A stretch of 64,000 nucleotides of DNA from an uncultured Acidobacteriota bacterium (lineage in GTDB: Bacteria > Acidobacteriota > Terriglobia > Terriglobales > Acidobacteriaceae). Positions within the stretch are counted from its first letter, which is position 1; every line of letters begins with the position of its first letter. The stretch covers positions 855,458 to 919,457 of the forward strand of contig CAVTLV010000001.1 in NCBI GenBank assembly GCA_963735695.1, read 5' to 3'. The position numbers were made by a program, and so were the translations under genes. Below, in pieces: positions 910 through 20,058 of the stretch. The notes under the pieces are model-generated. The model saw nothing but the letters and a program-made list of their open reading frames with translations, did not search any database and was not told the origin of the DNA.

Positions 910-3405
910 TCAGGAACCGGTGTAGAGCTGAAAGGGGGCCCAGTAAAACGGTTTATGGAAGGCGGTACTGGATCGAAGCAGCTTGAGCTTGGCATTCCGG
1001 AGAGCGGTGTCGGGAGTTTTTCCTTTTGCGAGTTCTCCGTAGAGTTCGTCCATCAGCTGGGGAGTGGAGACGTCGCTGACCTCCCACAAAGCACCGATCA
1101 CGTTGTGCGCTCCAGCGCGAAGAAATGCCCACGAAAGTCCTACGAGGCCTTCGCCGGTGTAGGCCCGTGAGCCTGCTCCGTAGCACGTCGAAATCGTGAC
1201 TAACTCTGCGTGTAACGGGTGATGAATGATGTCGCGGGCGTAGAGCTTGAAGGAATCGTCCTCGGGCCCAGACTTGGATAGTACGATGGCGGAGTCCAGC
1301 GGGCTGGTGCGACTGGCAGTCCCATGCGCAACAAAGTGAATGTAGGAAAACTGCTCCGGCTTGCCAGACAAATATGCCGTTGGCGTTGCACTATCGCGCG
1401 CGAATATTTTCTGTTGTGGTGGTGAGAAGTTTTTCTCGATACTTTCCATTTCCGCAGAGGCTTTCCGCAGTTCGGGATAATCCGGGTTCGGAGCAATAGC
1501 GTTCCCGAGCAAAAGCAAGCTGGGCGTGCGCTTGTCAGCCGCGCGAGAGGCTGCCAGCAGACGTAGCGAATTTGCATCAGCGATGGTAACGTCTTCAATC
1601 CAGTAGTGCGGAGTCGGGTCGGCAACGATTAAAGTCTCGAAGTTGAGAGTGTTCAGGCTGCCGTCGGGAATGATGATGACTTTCGCATTTTCTGCGAGCG
1701 AAGGTTTCGTCGGCATGACGAGCGTGCGGTAGAGCGTGCGTCCATCGTCATCGGCCGCTGGAAGGAATTCCTGTTGTTCAGAAAGCGCTTTGCGATAGCG
1801 GTGCACCACCGGATCGATTTCCGATTTCGGGGGCAGCGTGAACAAGCTGGTCTTTTTAGCGGTAATCACCCAGAGGTATGACTGCTTCTCGCCGAGCCAG
1901 TAAAAAAGAATCGTGCTGCCGGCGCGTCGTGCGATCTCCTGCGGGTTCAGAGCGACCGGCTTGAACGTGGTCCCTTTTTGCAAGAGACCCAAACCTTCTG
2001 CCAAGGTTCGACCACGACTGTATTCGGCCACTTGCAGAGCCTCTGTGGTCTTGCCTTTGCTCGCCAGGAAATGGATGTAGTCGTCGTAGATGCCGAGCGC
2101 GTTGGAAGGGAATGGCAACTGCAAAGCCTCGCCCTTCAGAGAAGATCGCGCTGTTTCGAAGGTGCTCAGAGCGGCACGATATTCGCGGTCTGCAGGCTGA
2201 GGCTGGTTCTCGTCTTCGTAGAGCTGCGCGAGGGAGTGCTCGGCCTCCCATTTCAAGAAGACGTGGCTCTTGGGATCCTGCTGAATCTCGCGATATATCT
2301 TCTCCGCTTGCTGAGTGTCGTGCATGCGGGCGGCGACGTGACCCTTGACCAGCAGGGGATAGAGCACATCAAGACGGTTGCCGTCTTTAGGAACGAGCGC
2401 GATGGTTTGATCGGCGTAATCGCGGGCTTGATCAAGCCTTCCCCTTCGCTCAGAGACCAAGGCTAGGGACACCAAAGCGTCGATGACATCTTGTTTGGTG
2501 GTTTGTTGTGCTAAGTCGAGAGCCTGCTTATAGTTTTGTTCGGCTTTCTCGAAGTCCTCCGCATCAAGATAGATATAGCCAGCGGTGGTGAGCCAGGTTG
2601 CCTCGTCAGTTGTTGCACCAATCTTCTGAGCGCGGTACCTCGCATCTACGAGCAGGGTTAGGGCTTTTTCGTGTTCTCCTAGTTTGTAATACGCCCAACC
2701 CTCATTGCCCAATGCGGTCTGAGCTATTCGCTCGGCTCCAATCGCCGCGGCCAGTTTGTAGGCGGCGTCGGACCAATCCATCGTCTCGTCATAGTGTTCT
2801 TGCTGCAATGCCGACCACCCAAGGTCCAACAATGCAGTGGCCTCCTTAAAGGAGCTGCTGTGCTCGCGGGCCATGATCAGAGCCTGGCCGAACAGACTCC
2901 GCGCTGCCATGAACCGGCCACGATTCATCTCCATCAAGCCGCGTTCCAGGGGTAAGTCGATGCAATCCGCGGAACTCGAGGTGCTGCAGAGTTGCTCGGC
3001 TTCCGAGAACTTTTTCTCAGCTTCGTCAAAATGTTGCAGGGAGCCATAAGCGGAACCCTCGAGCCGTGCCTTCCTTATCGCAAGGTCACCCGGCGGTGCA
3101 CTCTTCTCGGACGCTATAAGAGGTAGTACTCGATCATTCATTCCCCTCCACGAAAGCGCGTCTGCCTGCAAAAGCAGAAACCTCCAAGCCCACTCTGATC
3201 CACGATTGTGGAACTGTTTGTAGCCCGACTCTGCCTCTTGTTCAGCCTTGGCCACCTGCCCAGTTCGAAAGGAATGCATTGCGTGGTCAAAGGCGGATTG
3301 GGGATCGGGCTGTCGGCCGCAAGAAGGCGAAAAGGTGAGGAGGAAAGCCAACGACACGGATAGACAGAGGCTCGACTTGCCGCGCTGAAAGCGGGTTGCT
3401 TTCAA
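910..3405 (-). CDS. TPR-repeat protein with C-terminal CHAT (caspase-like) protease domain
   Basis: The C-terminal block IHFVAHGTA...LHAELVTISTCYGAGS...GLSWAFLRAGAHNVIGALW is typical of CHAT. It is preceded by about 500 aa of TPR-like helical repeats. The ORF-track start at 3723 would overlap the upstream gene by 289 nt. I place the start at in-frame TTG 3405, just before the hydrophobic segment SSLCLSVSLAFLLTF. The start is uncertain. Confidence 0.8.
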   Translation of the reverse strand: MKATRFQRGKSSLCLSVSLAFLLTFSPSCGRQPDPQSAFDHAMHSFRTGQVAKAEQEAESGYKQFHNRGSEWAWRFLLLQADALSWRGMNDRVLPLIASEKSAPPGDLAIRKARLEGSAYGSLQHFDEAEKKFSEAEQLCSTSSSADCIDLPLERGLMEMNRGRFMAARSLFGQALIMAREHSSSFKEATALLDLGWSALQQEHYDETMDWSDAAYKLAAAIGAERIAQTALGNEGWAYYKLGEHEKALTLLVDARYRAQKIGATTDEATWLTTAGYIYLDAEDFEKAEQNYKQALDLAQQTTKQDVIDALVSLALVSERRGRLDQARDYADQTIALVPKDGNRLDVLYPLLVKGHVAARMHDTQQAEKIYREIQQDPKSHVFLKWEAEHSLAQLYEDENQPQPADREYRAALSTFETARSSLKGEALQLPFPSNALGIYDDYIHFLASKGKTTEALQVAEYSRGRTLAEGLGLLQKGTTFKPVALNPQEIARRAGSTILFYWLGEKQSYLWVITAKKTSLFTLPPKSEIDPVVHRYRKALSEQQEFLPAADDDGRTLYRTLVMPTKPSLAENAKVIIIPDGSLNTLNFETLIVADPTPHYWIEDVTIADANSLRLLAASRAADKRTPSLLLLGNAIAPNPDYPELRKASAEMESIEKNFSPPQQKIFARDSATPTAYLSGKPEQFSYIHFVAHGTASRTSPLDSAIVLSKSGPEDDSFKLYARDIIHHPLHAELVTISTCYGAGSRAYTGEGLVGLSWAFLRAGAHNVIGALWEVSDVSTPQLMDELYGELAKGKTPDTALRNAKLKLLRSSTAFHKPFYWAPFQLYTGS

Positions 3406-3434
3406 ATAGGGAGATGAAATTTGCTGACTAGGGT

Positions 3435-4424
3435 CTATGTTCCGCCGCTGCCGCCTGCGCCTTTTCCGTTCACATTGCACGTCGCTAGCGACGCGCTGCC
3501 GGCCGCAAGGCAGCCCATTTCCAGGCGGATCATGGTGAGCTTGTACGAATTGTGATTCACCGTCAGCTCGGCGAGAAAGATGTTTCCGAAGTCGGGGATG
3601 TGAATCACGTGACCGTAGGATTTCGCTGGGGGTGGGATCTGAATGGACATCCCATCCGCAGCCTTCGCGCTGATGTTCTTGATCTCGACATTTTCGACCA
3701 ATGAACAAGTGATCCCGTCCCATTTACTGTCGCTCTTCCTTGCTGTACTCGCCTGATCCTGAATCTCAGCGTAGTTCAGATTGAAGCCATGATACTTCTT
3801 CGCCAGCAAACCGTCAGCGTCGGTGAGGCGCATTTTCTTCCGATCTTCTCCGGCCAACGATTCGAGAGTTTTTTTCAGCCTCTGGTACTGAGCCCCGACC
3901 GCGCTCATGAGGTCGGTCTTTTGATCGACGGACATCGCATCTTTGCCCGCAGGCCGTTGACCCGTGAGGTCAAGTTTCAGATAAGGCTCTGCTTTGTGGC
4001 GGGCGATCCTCAAATTCTCGAAATGCGTGCCCAGAAAAGTGACATGCGGAGAGTACTCCCCAGGGAAATGCGTGGTGGAGATTTGCGCAACGACCCGATC
4101 CGCCGTCACGACATTCAGAACATTCAAGTCCTCCACTACCGATGTCGCGAGCGTTACCGACGCACCCTCGTGCTTGTCGCTCGTGTGCCCTGAAACCTGC
4201 GTATGGGCAGCGGCGTAAGAAATGATTCCCTCCAGCCGAAAATCCTTCGCGTGCTGAGAGAAATAATTCCGTTGCGCCCGCTCTTCCTCGGGCAGGTCCG
4301 CAAGCTGACCCTCTAACTTCACGAAGGCCTGCTTCTTAATCTGCTCCTCAAACGGCAGTTTCAGCTTGCCGGCAAGGGCGTGAGCTTCCGCATGGAAATA
4401 ATGCGAGGTGCGATTGTCTTTCAT
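3435..4424 (-). CDS. hypothetical protein (329 aa), no recognisable motif and no signal peptide
   Basis: Long ORF with normal amino-acid composition. It sits 20 nt after the anti-sigma gene and about 30 nt before the CHAT gene, so it is in an operon position. The C-terminus is Gly-rich (NGKGAGGSGGT). Confidence 0.65.
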   Translation of the reverse strand: MKDNRTSHYFHAEAHALAGKLKLPFEEQIKKQAFVKLEGQLADLPEEERAQRNYFSQHAKDFRLEGIISYAAAHTQVSGHTSDKHEGASVTLATSVVEDLNVLNVVTADRVVAQISTTHFPGEYSPHVTFLGTHFENLRIARHKAEPYLKLDLTGQRPAGKDAMSVDQKTDLMSAVGAQYQRLKKTLESLAGEDRKKMRLTDADGLLAKKYHGFNLNYAEIQDQASTARKSDSKWDGITCSLVENVEIKNISAKAADGMSIQIPPPAKSYGHVIHIPDFGNIFLAELTVNHNSYKLTMIRLEMGCLAAGSASLATCNVNGKGAGGSGGT

Positions 4425-9513: not shown

Positions 9514-9896
9514 TTCTTTGTCCTAACCTCCACAACAGCATCCGATGGGACGGTCGTTCTTTGATGATGTCACAATTGGGAGGATTCCGACTATTGTAAG
9601 GTGTATCTGCAAGAATCGAGACCTCAGAATTAAGGTTGGGAACATCGCAAAACCCGTTTGCTTGCTGGCGGGAGGAAAGAGTAGAATTTCGGCCAAACCA
9701 GCCAACTGGCGGAGACTGACGTCCAATTTCCACCGGTTTTGATGAGCTACGCGAATGGGGGACGGCAGATGGAGAGTAGACCCTGCGAGTCGGCGCGTAA
9801 CTTGTTCTATCGACAAAAGACGGTTACATGGACGGGAAACCCTTACAGTGCTGCCCGGAGAACCTTTGGATCTCGCGAGCCGGTATTGGGCGAGCC

Positions 9897-12026
9897 ATGG
9901 AGTCAAGAATAATGAACGGGATTGCCGCGCGATCGCTCGGGTATGGTGCAGGAGTACTTACACTTGTGGTTTTGGGATGTATCCTCGCGGGACAAGCTGC
10001 AGGACCTGCGAAGCATCGAGTCTCGCTGCCGACGGACTGGAGTCACCGGCACGTCATCTTCTCGAACCCGACTACGGCCGAGGAGTACGCGCGGACCATC
10101 GACGAACCGCGCTACTGGCAGCAGATGTATCGGCGTAACTCCCCTGCGTCACTGGTCGCGATGGCGCCGCTCGCCAAGACTGCGCCTTCCAAATTTAAGG
10201 GAGCCCTGCATCGGGACTGGTCCGTGAGCCTTGGCAGTGGAGCCACCATGGGGCCGGGGAACTATCCCGCCAAATTTGGGTTTGATGTGACCACTGCCAG
10301 CTGTAGTGCGGATTACGTGGTGTACAGCACGGGGCTGGCGAGTTCGGGCACGCAGGCCAGTATTGTCGGATTTACGAATATCTACTCGGGATGCGCGGGA
10401 TCGCCGACCGTGAATTGGGCCTACGATACGGGGGGGCAAGTCCTTACGTCGCCGGTCACCTCACTGGACGGCGCTCAGGTGGCGTTTGTTCAGACTGATG
10501 GCGCAGCAAGGGGAACACTTGTCCTAATAAAGTGGGCCGGTTCCTCCGGATCGATTGGATCGCCGATCACTCTTACAAATCTGACGCCTGCGCAGTACCA
10601 GGCTTGCACGACACCCCCGTGCATGACCAAGCTCATCCTAAGGGATAATCTAGGTGTTGCTACCGATGATACAACTTCATCCGCTTTTTACGATTACAAG
10701 AACGACATCATCTGGGTCGGTGGCGCCAGGGGATGGGTGCACAAAATCACGGGAGTGTTCAAGGGAACTCCAATTGAAGTCATAACAGGTGGATTTCCTG
10801 TCCAGGTGTCGGCTGCACCCTGGACCTCAAGCGCGGTGTACGACCGGGTCTCGAACGATGTCTTCGTCGGTGACGCGCTGGGATTCGTTTATGCAGTGAA
10901 TGCCACGACTGGAGCGGTGACTGTTTCCGGGCAGTTGGATTTTGGAGCGGGCGTCGTGGACGCACCGATCATCGATCAGACCGGAGGCTTCCTCTATGTG
11001 TTCGCGTCGAGCGATAACAGTGGTTTATGCACAGCTGGCGTGAACTGTGCCGCTGTCTACCAACTCAGCACAACGTTTGCTAGCGGTGACACCGGAACCG
11101 AGGTCACCGTGGGAGACAGTGTTTTGAGTGCACCCCCAAATCCGAACCCTATGTACATTGGCGGATTCGACAGCGCCTACTTCAGCTCTGCGAATCGAAC
11201 AGGCAATCTTTATGTCTGCGGCAATACCGGGGCGATACCAACGCTGTACCAAGTTTCGGTCACAGCAGGCGCATTCCCGGGTACCGGTCTCGGAACTCCT
11301 TTTACTACGCTAGGCAAGACCGGATCCAATGCGGGGTGCTCTCCGGTTACAGATGTGGCCAACCCGAATACAACGGGCGGGCCTTCCGAGCGGGTGTTTG
11401 TCAGCGTGCAAGGCAGTGGTCTTTCCACGGCATGTTCTTCCGGGGGATGCATCATGAGCTTTCTTGACACGCCATGGAAGGCGAATACGGCGTATTCAAT
11501 CGGACAACAAGTTCTGAGTTCGCGGCGTCGCGTCGAGACAGTCATGACTGCAGGAACGTCGGGGGGTACAACCCCCGTGTGGACAAACTCCGCGGGTGCT
11601 AAGAAAACGGATGGCTCCGTGGTTTGGATAGATCAAGGGGCGCTTAACGCCACCACGATTCCTAGTTGGGTGGCTGGCCATACTTATATCGCTCCAACAA
11701 CCCGTATTATTGATTCGCTTGGCAACGTGCAGGTCTCCACTACCCCGGGCACTTCGGGACCGTCGGCTCCGGCTTGGAACACGACTCCCGGGGGCACAAC
11801 TCCTGATGGCACCGGCACGCTGGTTTGGACTAACGCCGGTCCCGTTGGCACTTTTGCATTGCCCTCAGCTGGCGGTACCAGTGGAATTATCGAGGATAAC
11901 GTTGTCTCTCCGTTAACCCAGGCGGGGGCTTCTCAGGTATACTTCACCACTCTGGGCAATCAGACTTGCGGAACTAGTGGGTCGGGGGGCTGCGCTGTGC
12001 AAGCCTCTCAGCCAGCTTTACAATAA
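9897..12026 (+). CDS. secreted PQQ-like beta-propeller repeat protein with two C-terminal Trp-rich repeats
   Basis: The N-terminal hydrophobic segment is GAGVLTLVVLGCILAGQAAG. Propeller-like blades are visible (VFVGDALGFVYAVNATTGAV, GFLYVFASS). The repeats are W..NTAY..GQQV...GTSGGTTPVWTN...DGSVVWIDQG and W..GHTY.....GTSGPSAPAWNT...DGTGTLVWTNAG. The start could be 9828, 9897 or 9912. Confidence 0.6.
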   Translation: MESRIMNGIAARSLGYGAGVLTLVVLGCILAGQAAGPAKHRVSLPTDWSHRHVIFSNPTTAEEYARTIDEPRYWQQMYRRNSPASLVAMAPLAKTAPSKFKGALHRDWSVSLGSGATMGPGNYPAKFGFDVTTASCSADYVVYSTGLASSGTQASIVGFTNIYSGCAGSPTVNWAYDTGGQVLTSPVTSLDGAQVAFVQTDGAARGTLVLIKWAGSSGSIGSPITLTNLTPAQYQACTTPPCMTKLILRDNLGVATDDTTSSAFYDYKNDIIWVGGARGWVHKITGVFKGTPIEVITGGFPVQVSAAPWTSSAVYDRVSNDVFVGDALGFVYAVNATTGAVTVSGQLDFGAGVVDAPIIDQTGGFLYVFASSDNSGLCTAGVNCAAVYQLSTTFASGDTGTEVTVGDSVLSAPPNPNPMYIGGFDSAYFSSANRTGNLYVCGNTGAIPTLYQVSVTAGAFPGTGLGTPFTTLGKTGSNAGCSPVTDVANPNTTGGPSERVFVSVQGSGLSTACSSGGCIMSFLDTPWKANTAYSIGQQVLSSRRRVETVMTAGTSGGTTPVWTNSAGAKKTDGSVVWIDQGALNATTIPSWVAGHTYIAPTTRIIDSLGNVQVSTTPGTSGPSAPAWNTTPGGTTPDGTGTLVWTNAGPVGTFALPSAGGTSGIIEDNVVSPLTQAGASQVYFTTLGNQTCGTSGSGGCAVQASQPALQ

Positions 12027-12039
12027 GACCGAGACTTCT

Positions 12040-12204
12040 ATGAATACAGACGATTCGACCTCTGAGCAGCCCCGCGTTTCCGTTGCGAAAAAGCCGTACG
12101 AGAAACCGGCCTTCCGCTACGAGCAGGTTTTTGTGACAACGGCTCTGGCGTGCGGCAAAATCTCGACGAGCTCCGCCTGCCTGCACGTGGGAAGCGCTTC
12201 ATGA
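12040..12204 (+). CDS. candidate RiPP precursor peptide (54 aa)
   Basis: The peptide is MNTDDSTSEQPRVSVAKKPYEKPAFRYEQVFVTTALACGKISTSSACLHVGSAS. It is below the ORF-track length cutoff when read from its internal ATG. It starts 14 nt after the previous stop. Its TGA overlaps the ATG of the next gene (ATGA at 12201-12204). The Shine-Dalgarno signal is weak. Confidence 0.55.
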   Translation: MNTDDSTSEQPRVSVAKKPYEKPAFRYEQVFVTTALACGKISTSSACLHVGSAS

Positions 12205-12668
12205 CTGTTTCCGAGCACGGGCAGGACCTTGCCCACGCTCTCAAGTGTGATCTGGCCAGCGAGACCTTGCGCGCCTCCGGTCGTTTGCGGCTGCGCGTAA
12301 CCGGTTGGAGCATGCTTCCGACCATCTGGCCTGGGGATACGCTTGAGTTAGAGGGGACCCGGCGCGACGAGCTTTCTGCGGGCGATATTGTGCTGTTCAG
12401 TCGGGATCGCCGCCTGTTTGCCCACCGCCTATTGAAAGCCAGCGGAAACGGGATCGTCACGCACGGGGATGCGATGCTCCGACCCGACCCGGTCGTCACA
12501 GAAAGCGAAGTGCTTGGCCGTGTCGCATGCATCGTGCGCAACGGCAAATGCATTCTGCCGAGCAAGACCTTGTCGCTTTCAGAACGTACCGTCGCGGGGG
12601 TTGCACGGTCCTCGGAATTCGGCGCCCGCTTCATTGTGGGGATACACGGTCTGCTTCACGGTAAGTAA
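12201..12668 (+). CDS. S24/S26-family peptidase, ER/archaeal (SipW/Sec11-like, Ser-His) type
   Basis: GWSMLPTIWPGDTLEL contains the Ser nucleophile box. GDIVLFSRDRRLFAHRLL carries HR where bacterial P-type SPases and LexA have KR, which is the S26B pattern as I recall it. The gene is translationally coupled to the small ORF. Confidence 0.65.
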   Translation: MTVSEHGQDLAHALKCDLASETLRASGRLRLRVTGWSMLPTIWPGDTLELEGTRRDELSAGDIVLFSRDRRLFAHRLLKASGNGIVTHGDAMLRPDPVVTESEVLGRVACIVRNGKCILPSKTLSLSERTVAGVARSSEFGARFIVGIHGLLHGK

Positions 12669-12696: not shown

Positions 12697-13512
12697 TTGC
12701 CTCAGTTGACCACAGACGTCGAGCGCCTCAGCCTCGTAATTGAGATCGGGGGCATGGGTGTGCGCGTGAATACGGCAGACTCGAATTTCCTGGAAATGCT
12801 GCAGTGTCGATATACGGGCTTCGTGAGTGATTCGGACGGGGCTGAAGTTGAATTCGATGTCGAGCTCATCAACCCGGGCGATGGCGATGATGATGCACCG
12901 GTCGAAGTGAAGCATCAGCGCGGCGCGTGGTCATTCCGGCGGGGCGATTTTCTTGCGGAGTGGCAACCGGCCTCGCAACGCGGATGGATTCGGCAGTCGG
13001 CGAACCCGTACTCGATTGATGCGGTGCTGCGCATTGTTCACACGCTGGTGCTGGCCAGGCAGGGAGGGTTCCTGCTGCATTCGGCCAGCGCGATCCGCAA
13101 CGGGAAAGCGTTCCTGTTTGCCGGAGTATCGGAGGCGGGTAAGACGACCATATCGCGACTGGCGCCGTCGGACGTCACGCTTCTTACGGACGAGATTTCG
13201 TATGTGCGAAAGTGCGATGACGGGTACATTGCATTTGGTACTCCTTTCACAGGAGAATTGGCCAAGCTCGGCGAGAATGTTTCGGCTCCGATCGCTGCCC
13301 TCTACTTACTGGCCAAGGGAAGCGAAAATCGAATTGATCCGGTACCGCCCGGCGAGGCGGCGCGCGCCCTGCTTGCGAATCTATTGTTTTTCGCGGAGGA
13401 TGAGGAGCTGGTGCAAGCCACTTTTCATGCCGCGTTTGAGTTTGTGAGCCGTGTACCAGTTTGGCGGTTGACCTTCTTCCCCGATGCACGGGTTTGGGAG
13501 TTGATTCGATGA
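12697..13512 (+). CDS. HPr kinase-like (HprK-related) serine kinase
   Basis: LHSASAIRNGKAFLFAGVSEAGKTTIS contains a Walker A motif (GxxxxGKT) in the context typical of HprK C-terminal-like kinases. The start is ambiguous: TTG 12697, TTG 12706 or ATG 12754. The ORF-track start at 12469 would overlap the peptidase gene. Confidence 0.65.
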   Translation: MPQLTTDVERLSLVIEIGGMGVRVNTADSNFLEMLQCRYTGFVSDSDGAEVEFDVELINPGDGDDDAPVEVKHQRGAWSFRRGDFLAEWQPASQRGWIRQSANPYSIDAVLRIVHTLVLARQGGFLLHSASAIRNGKAFLFAGVSEAGKTTISRLAPSDVTLLTDEISYVRKCDDGYIAFGTPFTGELAKLGENVSAPIAALYLLAKGSENRIDPVPPGEAARALLANLLFFAEDEELVQATFHAAFEFVSRVPVWRLTFFPDARVWELIR

Positions 13513-13811
13513 GTAGCCTTTATGTGGCCCGCAATCCGCGAGTGGCGGCGCGCAGCCTCGACGGCGAGATGATGATCATGTCGGGGCGGGACTCGACATT
13601 ATTTACCCTGAATAAGACCGCAACCATCCTATGGCAAGCGGCCGACGGGGCAACTCCGCTCGAAGAGATCGTGCAGCAAAAGATCTGCACAGAATTTGAG
13701 ATTGAGCCCGGTGAGGCACTGCGAGACGCTGAGACCTTGGCGCGGGACCTTGCCAGCCACGGAATCCTGCATATATCCGAAGAACCAATCGTCCGCGGAG
13801 AGTCGAAATGA
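13509..13811 (+). CDS. PqqD-family peptide chaperone (RRE-type)
   Basis: SLDGEMMIMSGRDSTLFTLNKTATILWQAADGATPLEEIVQQKICTEFEIEPGEALRDAETLARDLASHGIL fits the PqqD pattern. There are ATGA overlaps at both ends (13509-13512 and 13808-13811). Confidence 0.8.
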   Translation: MSSLYVARNPRVAARSLDGEMMIMSGRDSTLFTLNKTATILWQAADGATPLEEIVQQKICTEFEIEPGEALRDAETLARDLASHGILHISEEPIVRGESK

Positions 13812-14935
13812 ACGGGTTGCTCGAGCATATGACCGAGAAGGCGCTGGCGCGGAACATCCCACTCAGCGTGCAACTCGATTTGACCTATCGCTGCAACGAA
13901 CGGTGCGTTCATTGTTATCTCGACCACGAAGATCATGGCGAGATGACGACGGCGGAGATCAAACATTTGCTGGACGAGATGGCGGACGCCGGAGTCTTTA
14001 TCTTGACGCTGAGCGGCGGCGAGATTTTTCTGCGCAAAGACTTCTTCGAGATTCTCGAGTACGCGCGGCTCGAGCGGCAATTCTGCGTGAAGCTCAAGAC
14101 CAATGCGATCATGATCCATGAGCGCCAGGCTGCGAAGATCCGGGACATTGGGGTGGAGTCGATCCAGATCAGCATCTACTCCCACAGGCCGGAGGTGCAT
14201 GATGCGGTCACGCTGGTGCCAGGATCATTGCAGAGATCATTGGACGCAGCGCGGTTTCTGAAGTCGCAAGGACTGCGGGTGATCTTTGCGAACGTGCTGA
14301 TGGTGCAGAATCTGCAAGATTACCAGGGCGTAAGGGCGCTGGCAGAGGAAGTCGGGGTCGAGTGTACCTTGGACCCGACCATCACCCCCATGATGGATGG
14401 CGACCGCTCGGTGTTGAGCATGGGGCTGAAACAGGAAGCGTTGCGCCAGGTATTTCGCGATAAGGAGCTGGTCGGGGATGTGGACGAGTTTTGTACGGTC
14501 GCCGCTCCTGCCGATGAAAACGAGCTGTCAGCTCTGCCATGCAGCGCAGGACATACGACCTGTTACGTGTCGCCTTATGGCGATGTGTTTCCGTGCGTGC
14601 AGTTTCCGATTCCGACTGGAAATGTGAGGAACGAGCGGTTCGTCGACATTTGGCGGTACTCGGAGCGAATGAACGAAGTGCGCTCGATCCGCCTGAAGGA
14701 CCTGACGACCTGCACGTCTTGCTCACACGTCGGGAGTTGCACGCGGTGTCCAGGGCTGGCATTTATGGAGGGCAATATGCGCGGGCCGTCATCGCAGGAT
14801 TGCGAGAAGTCTTTTGCGCGCACAGGAATTCCATCAGCTAATATGCTGGCGAAGAAGCAGGCGTCACGCGATCTGGTGCAGATCCGCATAATGCCGGGCA
14901 ACTCGGCAAGTCAACCCACCGGCGCAATTGCATGA
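13808..14935 (+). CDS. radical SAM enzyme with C-terminal SPASM domain
   Basis: LTYRCNERCVHCY is the CxxxCxxC motif. The SPASM-type Cys clusters are CSAGHTTCYVSPYGDVFPCVQFP and CTSCSHVGSCTRCPGLA. Confidence 0.85.
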   Translation: MNGLLEHMTEKALARNIPLSVQLDLTYRCNERCVHCYLDHEDHGEMTTAEIKHLLDEMADAGVFILTLSGGEIFLRKDFFEILEYARLERQFCVKLKTNAIMIHERQAAKIRDIGVESIQISIYSHRPEVHDAVTLVPGSLQRSLDAARFLKSQGLRVIFANVLMVQNLQDYQGVRALAEEVGVECTLDPTITPMMDGDRSVLSMGLKQEALRQVFRDKELVGDVDEFCTVAAPADENELSALPCSAGHTTCYVSPYGDVFPCVQFPIPTGNVRNERFVDIWRYSERMNEVRSIRLKDLTTCTSCSHVGSCTRCPGLAFMEGNMRGPSSQDCEKSFARTGIPSANMLAKKQASRDLVQIRIMPGNSASQPTGAIA

Positions 14936-14968: not shown

Positions 14969-16135
14969 ATGCCAGGAAGTTCTGCGCCGCTTGAGACCGA
15001 GTGGTCTTTGTTGCGGGCTGCGTGTGCCGATGTTCCTCCTGCACAGAAAACCGCTCGAATTCGTAAGTTATTAGATTCTCAGATTCGCTGGGATTCTCTC
15101 CTTAGTCTCGCGGAAAATCACGGGGTGCAACCGATTCTTGCACGATCCCTCATGAGTTTCGAGGATCAGATTCCTGCCCAAGCGCTCATCGCTCTAAAAC
15201 AAAGTTATCAGGCAAATCTTCACAAAGCTCTCTTGCTATCAGGTGAATTTGTTCGTGTGGTTGACAAGTTGTCGGAGGCTGGAATCGAATTCATTCCCTA
15301 TAAGGGTCTGGCTTTGGCGGAGACCATCTACGGGGACATTGCGTTGCGCCAAGCCGGCGATATCGATCTCCTGATTCATGCGGCAGATCTGAAGCGCATC
15401 CAGGAAGTGATGGGGAAGATCGGTTACGTGCTGCAATTGAATTTTTCGGAAGACGAAGAAGCGGCATACATAAAGTCTGGGTACGAGTGCGCATTCGACG
15501 GTGCAGCAGGAAGGAATTTGCTGGAGGTCCAATGGGCGATTGAGCCACATTTTTATGCGGTAGATGTTGATCTTGAAGGACTATTCCGCAGGGCGCAGAC
15601 GGCAAGGGTTATGGGCTTAGACACAAAGTCGTTGTCACCGGAGGACCTCTTTGTAGTACTGGGTTTGCATGCGGCGAAGCATGTATGGGGACGGCTGATC
15701 TGGTTATGCGACCTGGAGCGGATCAGCAGGCTGCCGCTAAACTGGAAAAGGATCGTTGAGCACGCGCAGCAACTGGGTGTAGTGCGAATTCTTTGCGTTA
15801 CGCTACTGCTTGCAGAAAGACTGCTCGGCTCTCCTTGCCCGGCATTGGCCGCGGAAAATCTTCCCAAGGATTCAGCAGCTGAACCATTGGCGCAGGAGAT
15901 CGAAACATACATTTCAAACGATAAGACATACGATGTTGAGTCGCTCGCGTACTTCCGCCTGATGCTGAGATTGCGAGAACGGCGCATCGACCGTATCCGA
16001 TTTGTTAGCCGATTTGTATTTACGCCAGGGCCCGGCGAGTGGGCGGTGATGCGACTCCCGAAACTTCTATTTCCGCTATACCGGGTGTTGAGACTTACTC
16101 GCCTAGTCGGCAGAATAGTCAGTGGCCGGGTCTGA
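14969..16135 (+). CDS. nucleotidyltransferase family protein (PF14907 / NTP_transf_5-like)
   Basis: The N-terminus (WDSLLSLAENHGVQPILARSL) and the GDIDLLIHAADLKRIQEVMGKIGY block are typical of the uncharacterised nucleotidyltransferase family found in lasso-peptide clusters. Confidence 0.6.
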   Translation: MPGSSAPLETEWSLLRAACADVPPAQKTARIRKLLDSQIRWDSLLSLAENHGVQPILARSLMSFEDQIPAQALIALKQSYQANLHKALLLSGEFVRVVDKLSEAGIEFIPYKGLALAETIYGDIALRQAGDIDLLIHAADLKRIQEVMGKIGYVLQLNFSEDEEAAYIKSGYECAFDGAAGRNLLEVQWAIEPHFYAVDVDLEGLFRRAQTARVMGLDTKSLSPEDLFVVLGLHAAKHVWGRLIWLCDLERISRLPLNWKRIVEHAQQLGVVRILCVTLLLAERLLGSPCPALAAENLPKDSAAEPLAQEIETYISNDKTYDVESLAYFRLMLRLRERRIDRIRFVSRFVFTPGPGEWAVMRLPKLLFPLYRVLRLTRLVGRIVSGRV

Positions 16136-17332
16136 GCGAGTCCAACTTCGCAGATAGAGGACGTACATAAGCGCGCATCCCAACAGCGGGACATAGAAGC
16201 CAGCCTTCAAGGTCCCAAACCTTGTGGACGAAACACCTACAAGCCATGGTAAAAGACCGCCCCCGATGTTCGACAGAACGAACATGAGCGATCCGATCCG
16301 GGGGGAATCAAACTCACGAGACAGGAGCGAAATTGTAATGGGGTAGACGTATGAGAGACCCAAACCCCCGGCGCATGCGCTGGCAGCCACTCCCGGCAAT
16401 TCATGCGAAGAGATCAGTCCTGCCATTCCCGCACACGCCAAAAGTAAGCCAATCTGGACCAGTCGGATTTCGTCAATGACCAGGAGCAGAGCAGGTGCCA
16501 GCATTCTGCCGACCGTCAGCGAGGCATAGAAAAAGGAGGGAATCGCCAAAGATGTAGCCAGTGTCAAGGTTCCCAGACTCTTCCCATAGGACGCCAGCCA
16601 CTGGCCAAATCCGTTTTCCACCCCGACGTAGAGAAAAAAAAGCAGTGCGAGAATGGAAAATAGATGGGTACGCGCACGAATCAGGGACAGGACCGGGCGT
16701 TTGTCCAATATCACAGCCGGTTCGACGATGCCGCCGCCGGTTAACGCTATCCCGATCACAACCGAAACACAGAAGCCGGAGACGCAAAGCAAAAATAGCG
16801 GAATGTGTTGAGTCTTGGAGGCCGCGGCTACCAGGAAGGGACCGGCTACCGCTCCCGTGCTCCAGAAGAAGTTCAGCAGATTTAGCGTCGCGCTTCTGCG
16901 TCCCGGATTCACTGCGGCGACCATCAGGTTCGCTGCGGGAACTGCCAAGCCGAGTCCGGCACCATTCGCTGCAATGCAAACAATGGCAGACCATTTTGGA
17001 CCGGCTAGCAAAAAGGCCAGCCCCATAGCGGTGAGAAGAAGTCCGGTCTTCATTGCAAAGCGGTATCCTCGCCAGGAAGCCAAGACTCCTGAAAATGCAA
17101 CGGCGCAAGTCGAAGCAACGTACTGGACCGGAAAAAACGCGCCCGCCTGTGAGTAATTCAATGACCAGCGCGCCGAAAGCGTCGGCAGCATCGGACCGAG
17201 AATAACGGTTGCGACTCCGATGGGAATAAATGAGATGTACGCGGCATAGGTGAGAACGCGGGCAGAATCGGGCGCTGTGTGCGTGGCGGCGGTAGACATG
17301 AGGGGAGCGACTGCGTCCCCGGGCAGACGCAA
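16103..17332 (-). CDS. MFS transporter
   Basis: About 12 hydrophobic segments with MFS-like loops. The 3' end overlaps the convergent NTase gene by 33 nt. An alternative start is ATG 17299. Confidence 0.7.
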   Translation of the reverse strand: MRLPGDAVAPLMSTAATHTAPDSARVLTYAAYISFIPIGVATVILGPMLPTLSARWSLNYSQAGAFFPVQYVASTCAVAFSGVLASWRGYRFAMKTGLLLTAMGLAFLLAGPKWSAIVCIAANGAGLGLAVPAANLMVAAVNPGRRSATLNLLNFFWSTGAVAGPFLVAAASKTQHIPLFLLCVSGFCVSVVIGIALTGGGIVEPAVILDKRPVLSLIRARTHLFSILALLFFLYVGVENGFGQWLASYGKSLGTLTLATSLAIPSFFYASLTVGRMLAPALLLVIDEIRLVQIGLLLACAGMAGLISSHELPGVAASACAGGLGLSYVYPITISLLSREFDSPRIGSLMFVLSNIGGGLLPWLVGVSSTRFGTLKAGFYVPLLGCALMYVLYLRSWTRSDPATDYSAD

Positions 17333-17345
17333 GATCGTGTTGATC

Positions 17346-18389
17346 CTAGCAGGAGAGGGGTGCGTTTGCCGTAGATTCCCTGACGACTAGTTCAGGCTCG
17401 ATCGCAATCTCCGAAGGGTATTCCTTCTTGCCCTCAATTCGATCCAACAGGGTCTGGGCGGCGACTTCTCCCATACGGTTCAATGGCTGCCGCACCGTGG
17501 TCAGGCTGGGGGTATGAAAAGCCGCCCCGGGGATGTCGTCAAATCCGAGAACGGATATATCCTGCGGTACTCGGAGGCCTTGTTCCAGGATCGCACGGAT
17601 CGCGCCGATTGCGGATATATCGTTGTAGGCGAAGATTGCAGTGAATGGCTTCTGACGAGCGAGCAATTGCTTGGCGAACGGATAACCCAACATCGGTGTT
17701 GGGTCGTCCGTATCGATCTGCACGGTCAGCTCAGGATCAATGTTGATCCCGATCTCGGCGGCCACATGACAGATGGCATCCCAACGGTCCAATGAATCAG
17801 AACTTACTGGATTGCCCCTCATGAACGCGATACGTTCATGGCGCAGATCCTTCAGGTGGTTGAGCGCCAGAACAGCTGCCCGTTTGTGATCGAGCACGAT
17901 GTTGGTGATGCCCTTCAGTTTCTTGTGACCGGCGATCGCCACAGTGGGCAGCATGGGGACTTCCTGCACCGTAGTATCGACAGTGATAATCCCCTCGACA
18001 CCGCGTTCAGAAAGGAGTTGCGAATAGCGGCTCAACAGAGCCTGATCGTGCCGATGGACGACAGTCAGGAAAAAATAGTCGCGCTTCCTCAGATATTGCT
18101 CGATGCCGCTAATGATCGGTGAACTGTAGGAATCGCCGATCTCTTCCGCGATCACTCCAATCGTGTAAGTGCGTTTGTTGCGGAGAGTACGGGCAAAGAA
18201 GTTGGGGCGATAGTTGAGTTCCTTGGCGGCCGCGCGGATTCGGTTCTTGGTCTCCTGCGGAATGGAACGGGCAGACGGAGAATCGTTAAGGACAGCCGAG
18301 ACTGTGCCGGGCGTAAGTCCTAAGTATTGCGCGACCGATTTGAGCGTGATGACCTGCGGCTTTTGGCCGGGCTTCTTGACTTGCACCAT
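17346..18389 (-). CDS. LacI-family transcriptional regulator
   Basis: The N-terminal HTH is TLKSVAQYLGLTPGTVSAVLND, followed by a periplasmic-binding-protein-like sugar-binding core (AIFAYNDISAIGAIRAI, ISVLGFDD). Confidence 0.85.
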   Translation of the reverse strand: MVQVKKPGQKPQVITLKSVAQYLGLTPGTVSAVLNDSPSARSIPQETKNRIRAAAKELNYRPNFFARTLRNKRTYTIGVIAEEIGDSYSSPIISGIEQYLRKRDYFFLTVVHRHDQALLSRYSQLLSERGVEGIITVDTTVQEVPMLPTVAIAGHKKLKGITNIVLDHKRAAVLALNHLKDLRHERIAFMRGNPVSSDSLDRWDAICHVAAEIGINIDPELTVQIDTDDPTPMLGYPFAKQLLARQKPFTAIFAYNDISAIGAIRAILEQGLRVPQDISVLGFDDIPGAAFHTPSLTTVRQPLNRMGEVAAQTLLDRIEGKKEYPSEIAIEPELVVRESTANAPLSC

Positions 18390-18394
18390 GGGCT

Positions 18395-18410
18395 TTTAAA
18401 TCGTTTTAAC
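18395..18410. promoter_or_regulatory. candidate LacI-type operator (imperfect palindrome centred on CG)
   Basis: TTTAAATC|GTTTTAAC has 6 of 8 matching positions per half-site. It lies 6 nt upstream of the lacI-family start codon. It shares the AAATCG.TT core with the site at 20170-20185. Confidence 0.3.
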
Positions 18411-18513
18411 TGCCGTTCAAGAACCAAGGCAATGCTACCAGACTGCCGCTCCTTGTCAGTGATTCCGCACACGCTTTCGATTTGCACGGGCCCATGCCTC
18501 AGAACCGGCGCCC

Positions 18514-20058
18514 TCACACCTTCGCATACCGTTCGCTGTTCGGTTTCGAGCCGCTCAATGCGAAATACAAAATGTACAGGTAGCAAATGACCGGCAAGAA
18601 GAACGCGTGATGAATGCCGATGTGGTCGGCGATCCAACCCTGCGCTACCGGAATGATTGCCCCACCGACAATCGCCATAATCATGATTCCGGATCCATCG
18701 CCTGTCAGCGGCCCGAGCTCTGCCACGCCAAGAGTAAAGATGCTGGGGAACATGATGGAATTGAAGAATCCGACCAGGATAATGCTGTACATCGCGGTAT
18801 GGCCGTTCGTCAGCATGGAGACTGCGACGAGGCCCGCCGCGCACACTGCACAGAGGCCAAGCAAAATTCCTGTTCGCACCACCAAGCGGCCTCCACGAAG
18901 GGCCGTGGCGATTGCGAGGACTGCCGCTACGACAGCGACCAGAGCGAAAAGTGGGCGGGCGGTAACGAGAATATTGACGACAGCCCAGAGGAGGGCTATG
19001 AAGCTGAAATGAGTTGGAGGCGCAAGCTGGTCGGCAAATGCGTGGGCAACCCAGGACGAGATTAGAAAGAGCACGACTCCACCGACAGACGCAAGCGCCA
19101 GATAGGCTGCCTTTGCCCCGCTCAATAGCGCCGATCCGAAGAAACGACCGACCATGGCGCCGCCCCAGTAGAGGGCGACGAAGCCAGCGGCAACCTTCTC
19201 TGTCAGGGCTCCAATTTCAGGCTGGCCGAAGTAATTTACCAAGAAGCTTCCAATGGAAACCTCAGCGCCAACATAGACAAAGATGGCGATGGCCCCGAAG
19301 ATCAAATTCGGATGCTTCCAGATGGAGTCGTCGACCTTCTCCCCGAGCTGATGTTGAGCATGTGGAATTTTTGGCAACTTGAAACTGCCAATCGCGATCG
19401 CCAGCAGGACGAGCGCGATGCCCAGTCCGACGTAAGGCATCTTGACTGTCGCAGCTTCGTGCAGGCGATAAGCCTGCAGCGCGTCTGGCGCTAGAGCTCT
19501 CACTTCCTCAATTTTTCGCGCCGCGGTCAGAATAAAGAGGCCACCGAAGAAGGGGGCTAGAAACGTCCCTAGAGAGTTGAACGCCTGCGTCAGATTGAGC
19601 CGGCTCGACGCGGTTTCGGGCTTTCCCAGAACGGTGACATATGGATTGGCGGCTACCTGCAGGCAGGTGATTCCCGCAGCAAGCACGATGAGCGCGCCGA
19701 GGAATAGCGGGTAAGACGGAACACTGGCTGCAGGAACAAACAAAAATGCTCCCAGTCCCATAGTAAGCAGACCCACGACCATCGATCGCTGATACCCGAT
19801 CCAGTCAATAATCTTCGCTGAGGGGATCGAGAACAGGAAATAGGCGCCGAAGAACGCAAACTGAACCAGCATCACCTTGAAATAGCTCAAGTCAAAAATC
19901 GATTTCAGGTGGGGAACTAAGATGTCGTTCAAGCAGGTAAGGAAGCCCCACATGAAGAAGAGCGTGGTCACTGTGGCCAGCGGAGCGCCATAGCTTTGTC
20001 CGGTGCCCGGAGCGGGAGCAGCGGCCGTGGTGCTGGTATTAGGAGTTGCGATCGCCAT
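18514..20058 (-). CDS. sugar:H+ symporter of the FucP/GluP (glucose/galactose) MFS subfamily
   Basis: The N-terminus LFFMWGFLTCLNDILVPHLKSIFDLSY and the later blocks GRFFGSALL and FFNSIMFPSIFTLGV are typical of GluP/FucP. At 514 aa it is longer than usual. Confidence 0.8.
   Translation of the reverse strand: MAIATPNTSTTAAAPAPGTGQSYGAPLATVTTLFFMWGFLTCLNDILVPHLKSIFDLSYFKVMLVQFAFFGAYFLFSIPSAKIIDWIGYQRSMVVGLLTMGLGAFLFVPAASVPSYPLFLGALIVLAAGITCLQVAANPYVTVLGKPETASSRLNLTQAFNSLGTFLAPFFGGLFILTAARKIEEVRALAPDALQAYRLHEAATVKMPYVGLGIALVLLAIAIGSFKLPKIPHAQHQLGEKVDDSIWKHPNLIFGAIAIFVYVGAEVSIGSFLVNYFGQPEIGALTEKVAAGFVALYWGGAMVGRFFGSALLSGAKAAYLALASVGGVVLFLISSWVAHAFADQLAPPTHFSFIALLWAVVNILVTARPLFALVAVVAAVLAIATALRGGRLVVRTGILLGLCAVCAAGLVAVSMLTNGHTAMYSIILVGFFNSIMFPSIFTLGVAELGPLTGDGSGIMIMAIVGGAIIPVAQGWIADHIGIHHAFFLPVICYLYILYFALSGSKPNSERYAKV

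Follow-up and report, generated by a model that had tools for sequence, protein, structure and literature searches.

The phosphorylated and glycosylated lasso peptides, represented by paeninodin (PadeA/PadeK), pseudomycoidin (PsmA/K/N) and BsfA/K/N, are among the closest described systems to the locus analysed here. In lasso leaders, YxxPxL is the motif recognised by the B1 protein, and it lies at −17 to −12 (PMC10368454). The HprK-like kinases of lasso clusters phosphorylate exactly the C-terminal Ser of the linear precursor, this Ser is conserved wherever such a kinase is present (PMC9266682), and B1 accelerates the kinase reaction (PMC10368454). PsmN, an uncharacterised nucleotidyltransferase, adds hexose to the phospho-Ser (PMC6993621). 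Other related systems are the SynChlorMet (SCM) cassette and the GeoRSP system, which combine ScmC-like, PqqD-like and radical SAM/SPASM proteins; the sactipeptides and ranthipeptides, made by thioether-forming radical SAM/SPASM maturases of the SkfB, AlbA, CteB and PapB type; the mycofactocin (MftA/B/C) and PQQ (PqqA/D/E) pathways; and, for one enzyme, the ER/archaeal-type signal peptidases (S26B: SEC11, SipW, archaeal SPase I).

We analysed a 64,000-nucleotide stretch of DNA (the window) from an uncultured bacterium of the Acidobacteriaceae (GCA_963735695.1, contig CAVTLV010000001.1), in which a 54-codon ORF had been noted. Our analysis indicates that this ORF is a real, strongly conserved gene and probably the precursor of an undescribed family of enzyme-modified peptides. 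As in the phosphorylated and glycosylated lasso peptides, the leader has KKxYxKPx[L/F] and a conserved Thr shortly before the core (although the spacing to either candidate cleavage site differs from the canonical one), there is a discrete B1-type PqqD RRE, the cluster encodes an HprK-like candidate kinase and an uncharacterised nucleotidyltransferase, and the precursor always ends in Ser. However, no lasso cyclase, B2 cysteine protease, Asp/Glu acceptor or ABC exporter was found, and a radical SAM/SPASM enzyme and a soluble signal-peptidase-type serine protease are present instead. No paper describing this family was found in full-text literature searches, which did not extend to Haft & Basu 2011 or Zhu et al. 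2016. The RRE-Finder paper, the 2025 RRE paper and the rSAM compendium do not mention such a cluster, and a peatland BGC survey gives only class counts.

The 54-codon ORF and its conservation

The ORF at 12040..12204 (+) translates to MNTDDSTSEQPRVSVAKKPYEKPAFRYEQVFVTTALACGKISTSSACLHVGSAS, followed by a stop. The TGA stop (12202-12204) overlaps the ATG (12201-12203) of the next gene as ATGA. The residues Y20-E-K-P23-A-F25, T33-T34, C38 and C47 (9 apart) and the C-terminal Ser are all present, and the stretch from A35 onward has no Asp or Glu. These features agree with the preliminary description in every detail that could be checked in the sequence. However, its statement that gene callers would miss the ORF does not hold in general, as this exact peptide and its relatives are on record as called genes ("hypothetical protein") in JGI, NCBI and ENA data.

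Homologous proteins of 52–61 aa were found in more than 120 clusters at 90% identity, and a profile search found 648 clusters at 50% identity. Relatives occur in at least 408 species-representative genomes, almost all of them Terriglobales/Ca. Sulfotelmatobacter. In 81 distinct 72-nt leader blocks, entropy was 0.23, 0.15 and 1.22 bits at codon positions 1, 2 and 3, with 34,317 synonymous against 8,516 non-synonymous codon differences. This shows that the ORF is under purifying selection and indicates that it is translated. It is present in a single copy in the window, and no other copy of the motif family was found in the six frames of the window. No NCBIfam model matched ten family peptides at E values up to 10, and no Pfam family matched the ORF. 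A search of the peptide profile against PDB hit only a chance KKPYEKPA string in an RRM protein and no lasso leader chain.

The family pattern is KKPYxKPxFRxExVF[VE]T-x-AL-x-CGK, followed by 6–8 variable residues, a second Cys, 5–9 variable residues and a C-terminal Ser. In a 35-sequence alignment, K18, P19, Y20, K22, P23, F25, E28, V30, F31, T33, A35, L36, C38, K40 and C47 are invariant, while the residues between and after the two Cys vary freely. The preliminary description had predicted that small ORFs upstream of homologous S26/HprK/PqqD/rSAM clusters would show a conserved leader motif, conserved Cys positions and a hypervariable remainder, and this is what was found.

The conserved leader block K18-A37 (12091..12150 (+); KKPYEKPAFRYEQVFVTTALA) contains the lasso-type YxxPxF element (Y20, P23, F25), the near-invariant T33 (181 of 182 unique sequences) and an A35-x-[S/A/T/G]37 signal-peptidase-type (−3,−1) site, with position 37 being S106/A50/T14/G7/N3/H1/F1. 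The putative core C38-S54 (12151..12201 (+); CGKISTSSACLHVGSAS) contains the invariant C38, G39 (95%), K40 (182/182), a second Cys (C47), a hypervariable Ser/Thr/Gly-rich remainder and a C-terminal Ser that is invariant in 182/182 sequences. There are exactly two Cys. Only 43 of 182 members have any Asp/Glu in the variable part, and at no fixed position. The leader/core boundary is uncertain. The preliminary description had placed the core from A35, but the peptidase type favours cleavage after A35-L36-A37, so that the core would start at C38. The canonical spacing of the lasso YxxPxL would instead place the junction after L36, which matches neither the Thr(−2) site nor the AxA site. A lipobox or signal-peptide reading of ALAC was rejected because Leu is at −2 rather than −3 and there is no hydrophobic h-region.

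The neighbouring genes

In 67 of 77 genome loci the peptide gene is followed, in the same order, by genes for a peptidase, a ScmC-family protein, a PqqD protein and a radical SAM/SPASM enzyme. ATGA overlaps link peptide/peptidase, ScmC/PqqD and PqqD/rSAM. The association survives rearrangement, as peptide-PqqD-rSAM in one case and ScmC-PqqD-rSAM-peptide in another. However, nine of the 77 loci carry the peptide with the upstream beta-propeller gene (see below) but none of the enzymes within 10 kb. There is no strong Shine-Dalgarno sequence upstream of the peptide gene, and a promoter/terminator scan of the operon was at background level. No exporter is encoded in the operon. An M48 CAAX-type protease gene downstream of the rSAM was present in only six loci and is not a component of the system.

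The first gene (12201..12668 (+)) encodes a soluble S26B-type serine peptidase of 155 aa, which is the candidate leader peptidase. It matched PF00717 (Peptidase_S24) at 27.8 bits and TIGR02228 at E 6e-9, below the cutoff of the latter (35.9 against 51.85). The best PDB hits of the family profile were human SEC11C/SEC11A (E 3e-9 to 6e-8; SEC11C at E 2.9e-9), then bacterial SPase I and then LexA. The SM-P, HR and GD...D motifs of the S26B catalytic core are shared, and S37, H75-R76, D90 and D96 are invariant in 69 sequences. Unlike the membrane-anchored enzymes that act on Sec signal peptides, it has no hydrophobic segment (maximum Kyte-Doolittle hydropathy 0.87 over 19 residues), and it is encoded in a cytoplasmic RiPP operon, translationally coupled to a presumed substrate that has no signal peptide. 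LexA/UmuD-type cleavage at C38-G39 was ranked below AxA|C because the general base is His, not Lys, and the SEC11 matches are about 10^5-fold better than the LexA matches.

The second gene (12697..13512 (+)) encodes a ScmC-family P-loop protein of predicted HprK/PEPCK fold, 271 aa, with an inferred TTG start, and is the candidate kinase for the C-terminal Ser. It matched TIGR04249 ScmC at E 2e-8 and HprK_rel_A at 4e-4, both below cutoff, and its homologues carry PF27840 (ScmC), one of them being named "SynChlorMet cassette protein ScmC" in UniRef. PDB sequence searches gave no useful hits. An AF2 model of modest confidence (pLDDT 66) matched PEPCK at E 3e-7 and HprK/P at E 6e-5. The motifs LLHSASA, GxSxxGKTT and LLTDE are conserved and correspond to the H-K-D-D motif of HprK-like peptide kinases (PMC9266682), although the second acidic residue is Glu rather than Asp.

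The third gene (13509..13811 (+)) encodes a discrete PqqD-family RRE of 100 aa (PF05402 at E 4e-12), whose best NCBIfam hit is lasso_PqqD_Strm, below cutoff. The best PDB hits of its family profile were the lasso B1 proteins TbiB1 (E 2.7e-7) and TfuB1 (8e-6) and a lasso PqqD chaperone, whereas PqqD itself scored only 0.012. This gives independent support to the suggestion, made in the preliminary description, that the leader is of lasso type.

The fourth gene (13808..14935 (+)) encodes a radical SAM/SPASM enzyme of 375 aa (PF04055 and PF13186) with a complete CX3CX2C motif at C29/C33/C36, eight Cys in the SPASM region and no fused N-terminal RRE. Its best NCBIfam hits were MftC (139 bits against a cutoff of 265), AhbD, NirJ2, GeoRSP (104 against 400) and ScmE (96.5 against 400), all far below cutoffs. 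The scores to AlbA (78 against 850), StsB (82 against 625) and SkfB (62 against 300) were lower. Its best PDB hits were SkfB (E 2.5e-11), PqqE, SuiB and CteB, and the alignment to SkfB starts at SkfB residue 102. As compared with the sactipeptide and ranthipeptide systems, there is again a radical SAM/SPASM enzyme, an RRE and a Cys-containing core, but the RRE is a separate protein, and there are only two Cys and no conserved acceptor.

The trio of ScmC-family protein, PqqD-family chaperone and PqqE-like radical SAM/SPASM protein is also that of the SCM and GeoRSP systems. However, the scores against the SCM equivalog models (TIGR04248-04251) are far below cutoffs (ScmC 33.7 against 125, ScmD 16.2 against 100), there is one radical SAM gene and not two, and a peptidase, a nucleotidyltransferase and a beta-propeller partner are added. 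The mycofactocin and PQQ pathways likewise have a small precursor, a discrete PqqD-family chaperone and a radical SAM/SPASM enzyme without a fused RRE. In the present family, however, the surviving part of the peptide is hypervariable, the C-terminus is Ser with no Gly-Val-Tyr or Glu/Tyr pair, and the PqqD protein is closer to lasso B1 than to PqqD itself.

In 41 of the 67 full clusters (about 60%) a PF14907 "uncharacterised nucleotidyltransferase" follows. In the window it lies at 14969..16135 (+), has 388 aa, matches PF14907 at E 7e-57 and has a GDIDLL (DxD) motif, with DxD at residue 131.

Upstream of the peptide gene, 9828..12026 (+) encodes a secreted protein of roughly 700 aa and unknown function (probable start ATG 9912), predicted to be a beta-propeller, which ends 13 nt before the peptide gene. 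A homologue lies directly upstream in 62 of 75 loci, including the nine that lack the enzymes, and is also adjacent in three rearranged clusters with different gene orders. An AF2 model (pLDDT 79.6, pTM 0.82) showed an N-terminal hydrophobic helix and an all-beta body. Foldseek returned only generic beta-propellers, and there were no informative Pfam or PDB sequence hits.

Inferred pathway and alternative explanations

Our best explanation, in which we have considerable though not complete confidence, is that the ORF encodes a RiPP precursor processed by the adjacent RRE/radical SAM set. The enzymatic steps are inferred and are individually less certain. The lasso-B1-like PqqD protein would bind the leader through Y20/P23/F25 and present the peptide to the partner enzymes. 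The radical SAM/SPASM enzyme would then modify the core, most likely by a crosslink using the invariant C38 and/or C47 as thioether donors. This chemistry, which the preliminary description had also raised, remains tentative. The ScmC protein would phosphorylate the side chain of the invariant C-terminal Ser, as PadeK, ThcoK and PsmK do on lasso precursors. This step seems somewhat more likely than not, and it gives the terminal Ser more importance than the preliminary description recognised, although the Ser is also kept in the peptide-PqqD-rSAM locus, where no kinase gene is adjacent. Where present, the PF14907 nucleotidyltransferase would add a further group to that phosphate, as PsmN does. 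The soluble signal-peptidase homologue would remove the leader, most likely after A35-L36-A37, where A35 and the small residue at position 37 fit the established (−3,−1) rule of signal peptidases, releasing a peptide of about 17 residues that starts at Cys38. The evidence for this cleavage site is about evenly balanced. The constant pairing with the beta-propeller protein suggests that the product acts with or on that protein outside the cytoplasm.

A possible alternative to the crosslinking step only, and not to the RiPP-precursor reading, is that the two Cys simply form a disulfide and that the radical SAM enzyme performs epimerisation, a C-C or ether crosslink involving K40 or Ser/Thr, or an MftC-like modification of the C-terminus. 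The best rSAM family score is to MftC, which acts at a precursor C-terminus, K40 is as invariant as the Cys, no conserved acceptor for a thioether exists, and SuiB (Lys-Trp C-C bond) and PqqE are among the nearest solved relatives. However, no aromatic residue is conserved for a streptide- or PQQ-type C-C link, the rSAM matches are too far below family cutoffs to discriminate, and SkfB, a thioether former, is the best PDB hit, with CteB also matching.

It is less likely that the modified peptide is not a free natural product but a dedicated ligand, cofactor or small subunit of the beta-propeller protein. The analogy is QHNDH, where the radical SAM enzyme QhpD crosslinks the small gamma subunit QhpC, a serine peptidase removes its leader, and the peptide then joins a beta-propeller subunit; a looser analogy is PQQ made by PqqD/PqqE for beta-propeller dehydrogenases. 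The genomic pairing described above, the top rSAM score to MftC and the discrete PqqD, as used by the cofactor pathways, are in favour of this. One locus also reads in frame from one gene into the other, but this may be an assembly error in a long-read MAG. On the other hand, the part of the peptide that survives processing is hypervariable, unlike cofactor precursors, the beta-propeller protein has a signal/anchor helix while the peptide has none, 13 of 75 loci have the full enzyme set without the beta-propeller gene upstream, and the fold search gave no enzyme signature.

A true lasso precursor whose cyclase and B2 protease are encoded elsewhere in the genome is very unlikely and already contradicted. 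The lasso-type leader, the B1-like RRE, and the HprK-like kinase and PF14907 nucleotidyltransferase, as in paeninodin/pseudomycoidin-type clusters, would fit it. However, no asparagine-synthetase-like cyclase or transglutaminase-like B2 gene was found in the operon, in the gene calls of the related loci inspected, or among the ten large ORFs scanned elsewhere in the window, and no Asp/Glu acceptor is available in the window peptide, as the preliminary description had concluded. The remaining possibility, a chance reading frame in the 3′ UTR or intergenic region, is suggested only by the short length, the lack of a strong Shine-Dalgarno sequence and the absence of Pfam or NCBIfam matches, and is contradicted by the hundreds of homologues of conserved length, the third-position variation and the retention of the ORF in rearranged contexts.

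Implications for the Terriglobales

A more far-reaching reading, which we regard as doubtful at present, is that of a new RiPP class. In this, a lasso-derived recognition and tailoring module (leader, B1 RRE, Ser kinase and nucleotidyltransferase) would have been recombined with a radical SAM/SPASM crosslinking enzyme, leader removal would be done by a cytoplasmic, anchor-less homologue of the ER/archaeal signal peptidase, a protease type not known as a RiPP leader peptidase, and the phospho-decorated product would work as a dedicated ligand or subunit of a secreted beta-propeller protein found in hundreds of soil Acidobacteria.

Terriglobales Acidobacteria are among the most abundant and least cultured soil and peat bacteria, and almost none of their peptide natural products have been characterised. 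The present precursor family gives a defined, testable substrate for a ScmC/PqqD/radical SAM cassette type whose precursor has apparently never been assigned, for a soluble signal-peptidase homologue that may be a new kind of leader peptidase, and for the HprK-like kinase and PF14907 transferase pair outside lasso peptides. It also shows how RiPP pathways evolve by swapping the class-defining enzymes while keeping the leader/RRE pair, which matters for genome-mining rules that classify clusters by RRE type. The constant linkage to a secreted beta-propeller protein offers a handle on function.

The peptide gene and its family

The ORF at 12040..12204 (+) reads ATG...TGA and translates to MNTDDSTSEQPRVSVAKKPYEKPAFRYEQVFVTTALACGKISTSSACLHVGSAS. 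Its stop overlaps the ATG at 12201 of the next gene (ATGA). Analysis of the translated sequence revealed a YEKPAF element, a Thr-Thr pair, two Cys nine residues apart, no Asp or Glu from A35 on, and a terminal Ser. The coordinates and sequence given in the preliminary description are exact.

A search with the 54 residues returned more than 120 clusters of 52-61-aa proteins down to about 55% identity. We then built a profile from 35 of these proteins, which found 648 clusters at 50% identity in 1.84 billion proteins. A back-translated scan of one genome per species found 408 loci, almost all of which are labelled Ca. Sulfotelmatobacter, Acidobacteriaceae or Terriglobales MAGs from soil and peat. 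In 81 distinct DNA versions of the 24-codon conserved block, entropy was 0.23, 0.15 and 1.22 bits at codon positions 1, 2 and 3, and synonymous codon differences outnumbered non-synonymous ones four to one. This excludes an untranslated spacer and confirms that the ORF is a real gene. Long antisense ORFs of 198 and 70 aa (12038..12634 (-) and 11974..12186 (-)) overlap the peptide and peptidase genes but, given the third-position variation pattern in the + frame, they are most likely by-products of high G+C content. The preliminary description held that length-filtered gene callers would miss the ORF, but this is not generally true, since the exact peptide and many of its relatives are already called as "hypothetical protein" in public data. 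No Pfam or NCBIfam model matched the peptide, even at E up to 10, and no paper in the literature searched contained its motifs. The family is large, taxonomically coherent and, as far as that literature and the family libraries show, undescribed.

The N-terminal 12-20 residues of the family members vary. They are followed by a nearly invariant block, KKPYxKPxFRxExVF[V/E]T-x-AL-x-CGK, then by 6-8 variable residues, a second invariant Cys, and 5-9 variable residues (mostly 7). The last residue is Ser in 182 of 182 unique sequences. The variable parts are rich in Ser, Thr, Gly, Gln and Asn and contain no third Cys and almost no aromatic residues, while Asp/Glu occurs in only 43 of the 182 and at no fixed place. 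A conserved leader with a hypervariable core carrying a few fixed residues is the signature of a RiPP precursor. This is what the preliminary description had predicted, and its interpretation is supported. Two family members, P0372 and P0353, have N-terminal extensions with a second leader-like element. P0372 starts with KKVYTLPELLIYGNLAQITST, which looks like a canonical lasso leader, ahead of the normal KPYQDPAFRYERVFETMALACGK block, and P0353 repeats KRPYVKP[AD]FR twice. These could be fused or mis-called tandem precursors.

Neighbouring genes and their predicted products

The peptide gene is followed by a 155-aa peptidase (12201..12668), a 271-aa ScmC-family protein with a TTG start (12697..13512), whose length matches the gene calls of related loci, a PqqD protein (13509..13811), a radical SAM/SPASM enzyme (13808..14935) and a PF14907 "uncharacterised nucleotidyltransferase" (14969..16135). 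Each gene overlaps or nearly abuts the next. Of 77 genome loci with enough downstream sequence, 67 have peptidase, ScmC, PqqD and radical SAM genes in this order directly after the peptide, and 41 of those 67 also have the nucleotidyltransferase. Nine have none of the enzymes, and one is a deletion remnant. The link survives rearrangement: one locus has the order peptide-PqqD-radical SAM, and another contig has ScmC-PqqD-radical SAM-peptide, while the standard order was found in a divergent subfamily. In six clusters that lack the nucleotidyltransferase (locus L021, at 12996..14492, and loci L029, L030, L032, L034 and L083), a membrane M48 (Ste24/CAAX-protease-like) peptidase gene follows the radical SAM gene. 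It is absent from the other loci, so it is probably a clade-specific neighbour. A 937-aa TPR plus CHAT-domain (caspase-like) protein encoded at 910..3723 (-) is unrelated to the peptide system.

A profile of 13 members of the PqqD family hit the lasso B1 proteins first, namely TbiB1 (E 2.7e-7), TfuB1 (8e-6) and a "lasso peptide biosynthesis PqqD family chaperone", whereas PqqD itself scored only E 0.012. The best NCBIfam hits were also lasso PqqD models, below cutoff. B1 proteins bind the YxxPxL element of lasso leaders (PMC10368454), and the invariant Y20-x-x-P23-x-F25 of the peptide family is the likely counterpart.

The family profile of the peptidase hit human SEC11C and SEC11A (E 3e-9 to 6e-8), with bacterial signal peptidase I (4e-5) and LexA (1e-3) well behind. 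S37 (in GWSMLP), H75-R76, D90 and D96 are invariant across 69 sequences. This is the Ser/His/Asp arrangement of ER/archaeal-type (S26B) signal peptidases rather than the Ser/Lys dyad of LexA or bacterial SPase I. The protein has no hydrophobic segment, so it is a soluble enzyme.

The ScmC protein has a conserved His, a Walker A motif (GVSEAGKTT) and an LLTDE acidic pair. A profile search picked up the P-loop region of ATP-dependent PEP carboxykinase, and an AlphaFold model of modest confidence (pLDDT 66) matched PEPCK (E 3e-7, TM about 0.5) and HPr kinase/phosphorylase (E 6e-5).

The radical SAM enzyme has CX3CX2C at residues 29-36 and a full SPASM cysteine set. It has no N-terminal RRE, and its alignment to SkfB starts at SkfB residue 102. 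Family scores do not discriminate between reactions: MftC scored 139, AhbD 136, NirJ2 133, GeoRSP 104, ScmE 96 and sactisynthases 62-82 bits, all far below cutoffs.

The predicted beta-propeller protein upstream

Unexpectedly, the 732-aa ORF at 9828..12026 (+), which ends 13 nt upstream of the peptide gene and encodes a ~700-aa predicted secreted beta-propeller protein of unknown function, has homologues directly upstream of the peptide in 62 of 75 loci. The protein has an N-terminal hydrophobic helix and many conserved Cys. Its AlphaFold model (pLDDT 79.6, pTM 0.82) is all-beta and matched only generic beta-propellers such as WD40 tandems, BamB, YxaL and YncE. All 984 scored homologues are "hypothetical", and a subset of them (about 905 aa) carries an additional PF11999 (ice-binding-like, DUF3494) domain.

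The partnership also holds in the nine loci (L047 6248..10162, L051 4718..10171, and L053, L056, L061, L074, L076, L077 and L084) that have no modifying enzymes within 10 kb. The cores of these nine are unusually alike (...ALSCGKTGTQAQCSLNIKVS). In two of the four inspected, L047 and L051, ORFs that look like an ECF sigma factor and a zinc-finger anti-sigma factor, as judged from sequence by eye, lie just upstream. In L084 (9782..10159) the beta-propeller homologue reads in frame through its usual stop position into the peptide ORF (...GGCAVQASQQGFKLEKAATFMANENSS...), which is either a natural fusion or an indel error in a long-read MAG. Homologues of 29-33% identity sit beside the peptide in three other gene orders.

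This linkage suggests that the peptide acts with the protein outside the cell. However, that reading is in tension with the lack of an exporter and with 13 loci that have the enzymes but not this gene upstream. An MFS transporter, a LacI-type regulator and a second MFS (sugar-permease-like) gene do lie downstream on the opposite strand (16103..20058 (-)), but they are syntenic only in the clade that has the nucleotidyltransferase. They look like sugar uptake rather than peptide export, although the first MFS gene was not excluded as an exporter.

Inferred processing and comparison with known systems

Our analysis indicated that the peptide is not a lasso. Neither a cyclase nor a B2 protease was found in the operon, in the gene calls of the related loci inspected, or among the large ORFs scanned elsewhere in the window, and there is no conserved acceptor residue. 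The most likely mechanism, which is inferred from the gene content and from characterised pathways, is that the B1-like RRE binds the leader and the RRE-less radical SAM enzyme modifies the core. A thioether crosslink from C38 and/or C47 is our best guess for the latter step, because these are the only invariant reactive side chains apart from K40 and the terminal Ser, but this assignment is tentative.

The terminal Ser is the best-supported tailoring site. In lasso clusters with HprK-like kinases, the linear precursor is phosphorylated on its C-terminal Ser, and that Ser is "extremely conserved" wherever such a kinase occurs (PMC9266682). B1 accelerates the reaction (PMC10368454), and the uncharacterised nucleotidyltransferase PsmN then adds hexose to the phosphate (PMC6993621). 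The same trio of invariant terminal Ser, HprK-fold protein (as predicted) and PF14907 protein is present here.

For leader removal, the signal-peptidase type of the protease points to the (-3,-1) rule. A35 is invariant, and position 37 is Ser, Ala, Thr or Gly in 177 of 182 sequences. Cleavage after A35-L36-A37 would free a 17-residue peptide starting at Cys38, but cleavage after T33-T34, following the lasso Thr(-2) logic, or at C38-G39, as in UmuD, is not excluded.

On this inferred mechanism, the system works like a lasso pathway at the recognition and C-terminal tailoring steps, and like a PqqE/MftC/sactisynthase pathway at the core-modification step. By component list it resembles the SynChlorMet and GeoRSP cassettes (ScmC, PqqD and radical SAM/SPASM). 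However, it fails all their equivalog cutoffs, has one radical SAM gene instead of two, and adds a peptidase, a transferase and the beta-propeller partner. It is therefore a member of none of the defined families, and is best described as a distinct variant within RRE-dependent radical SAM RiPPs.
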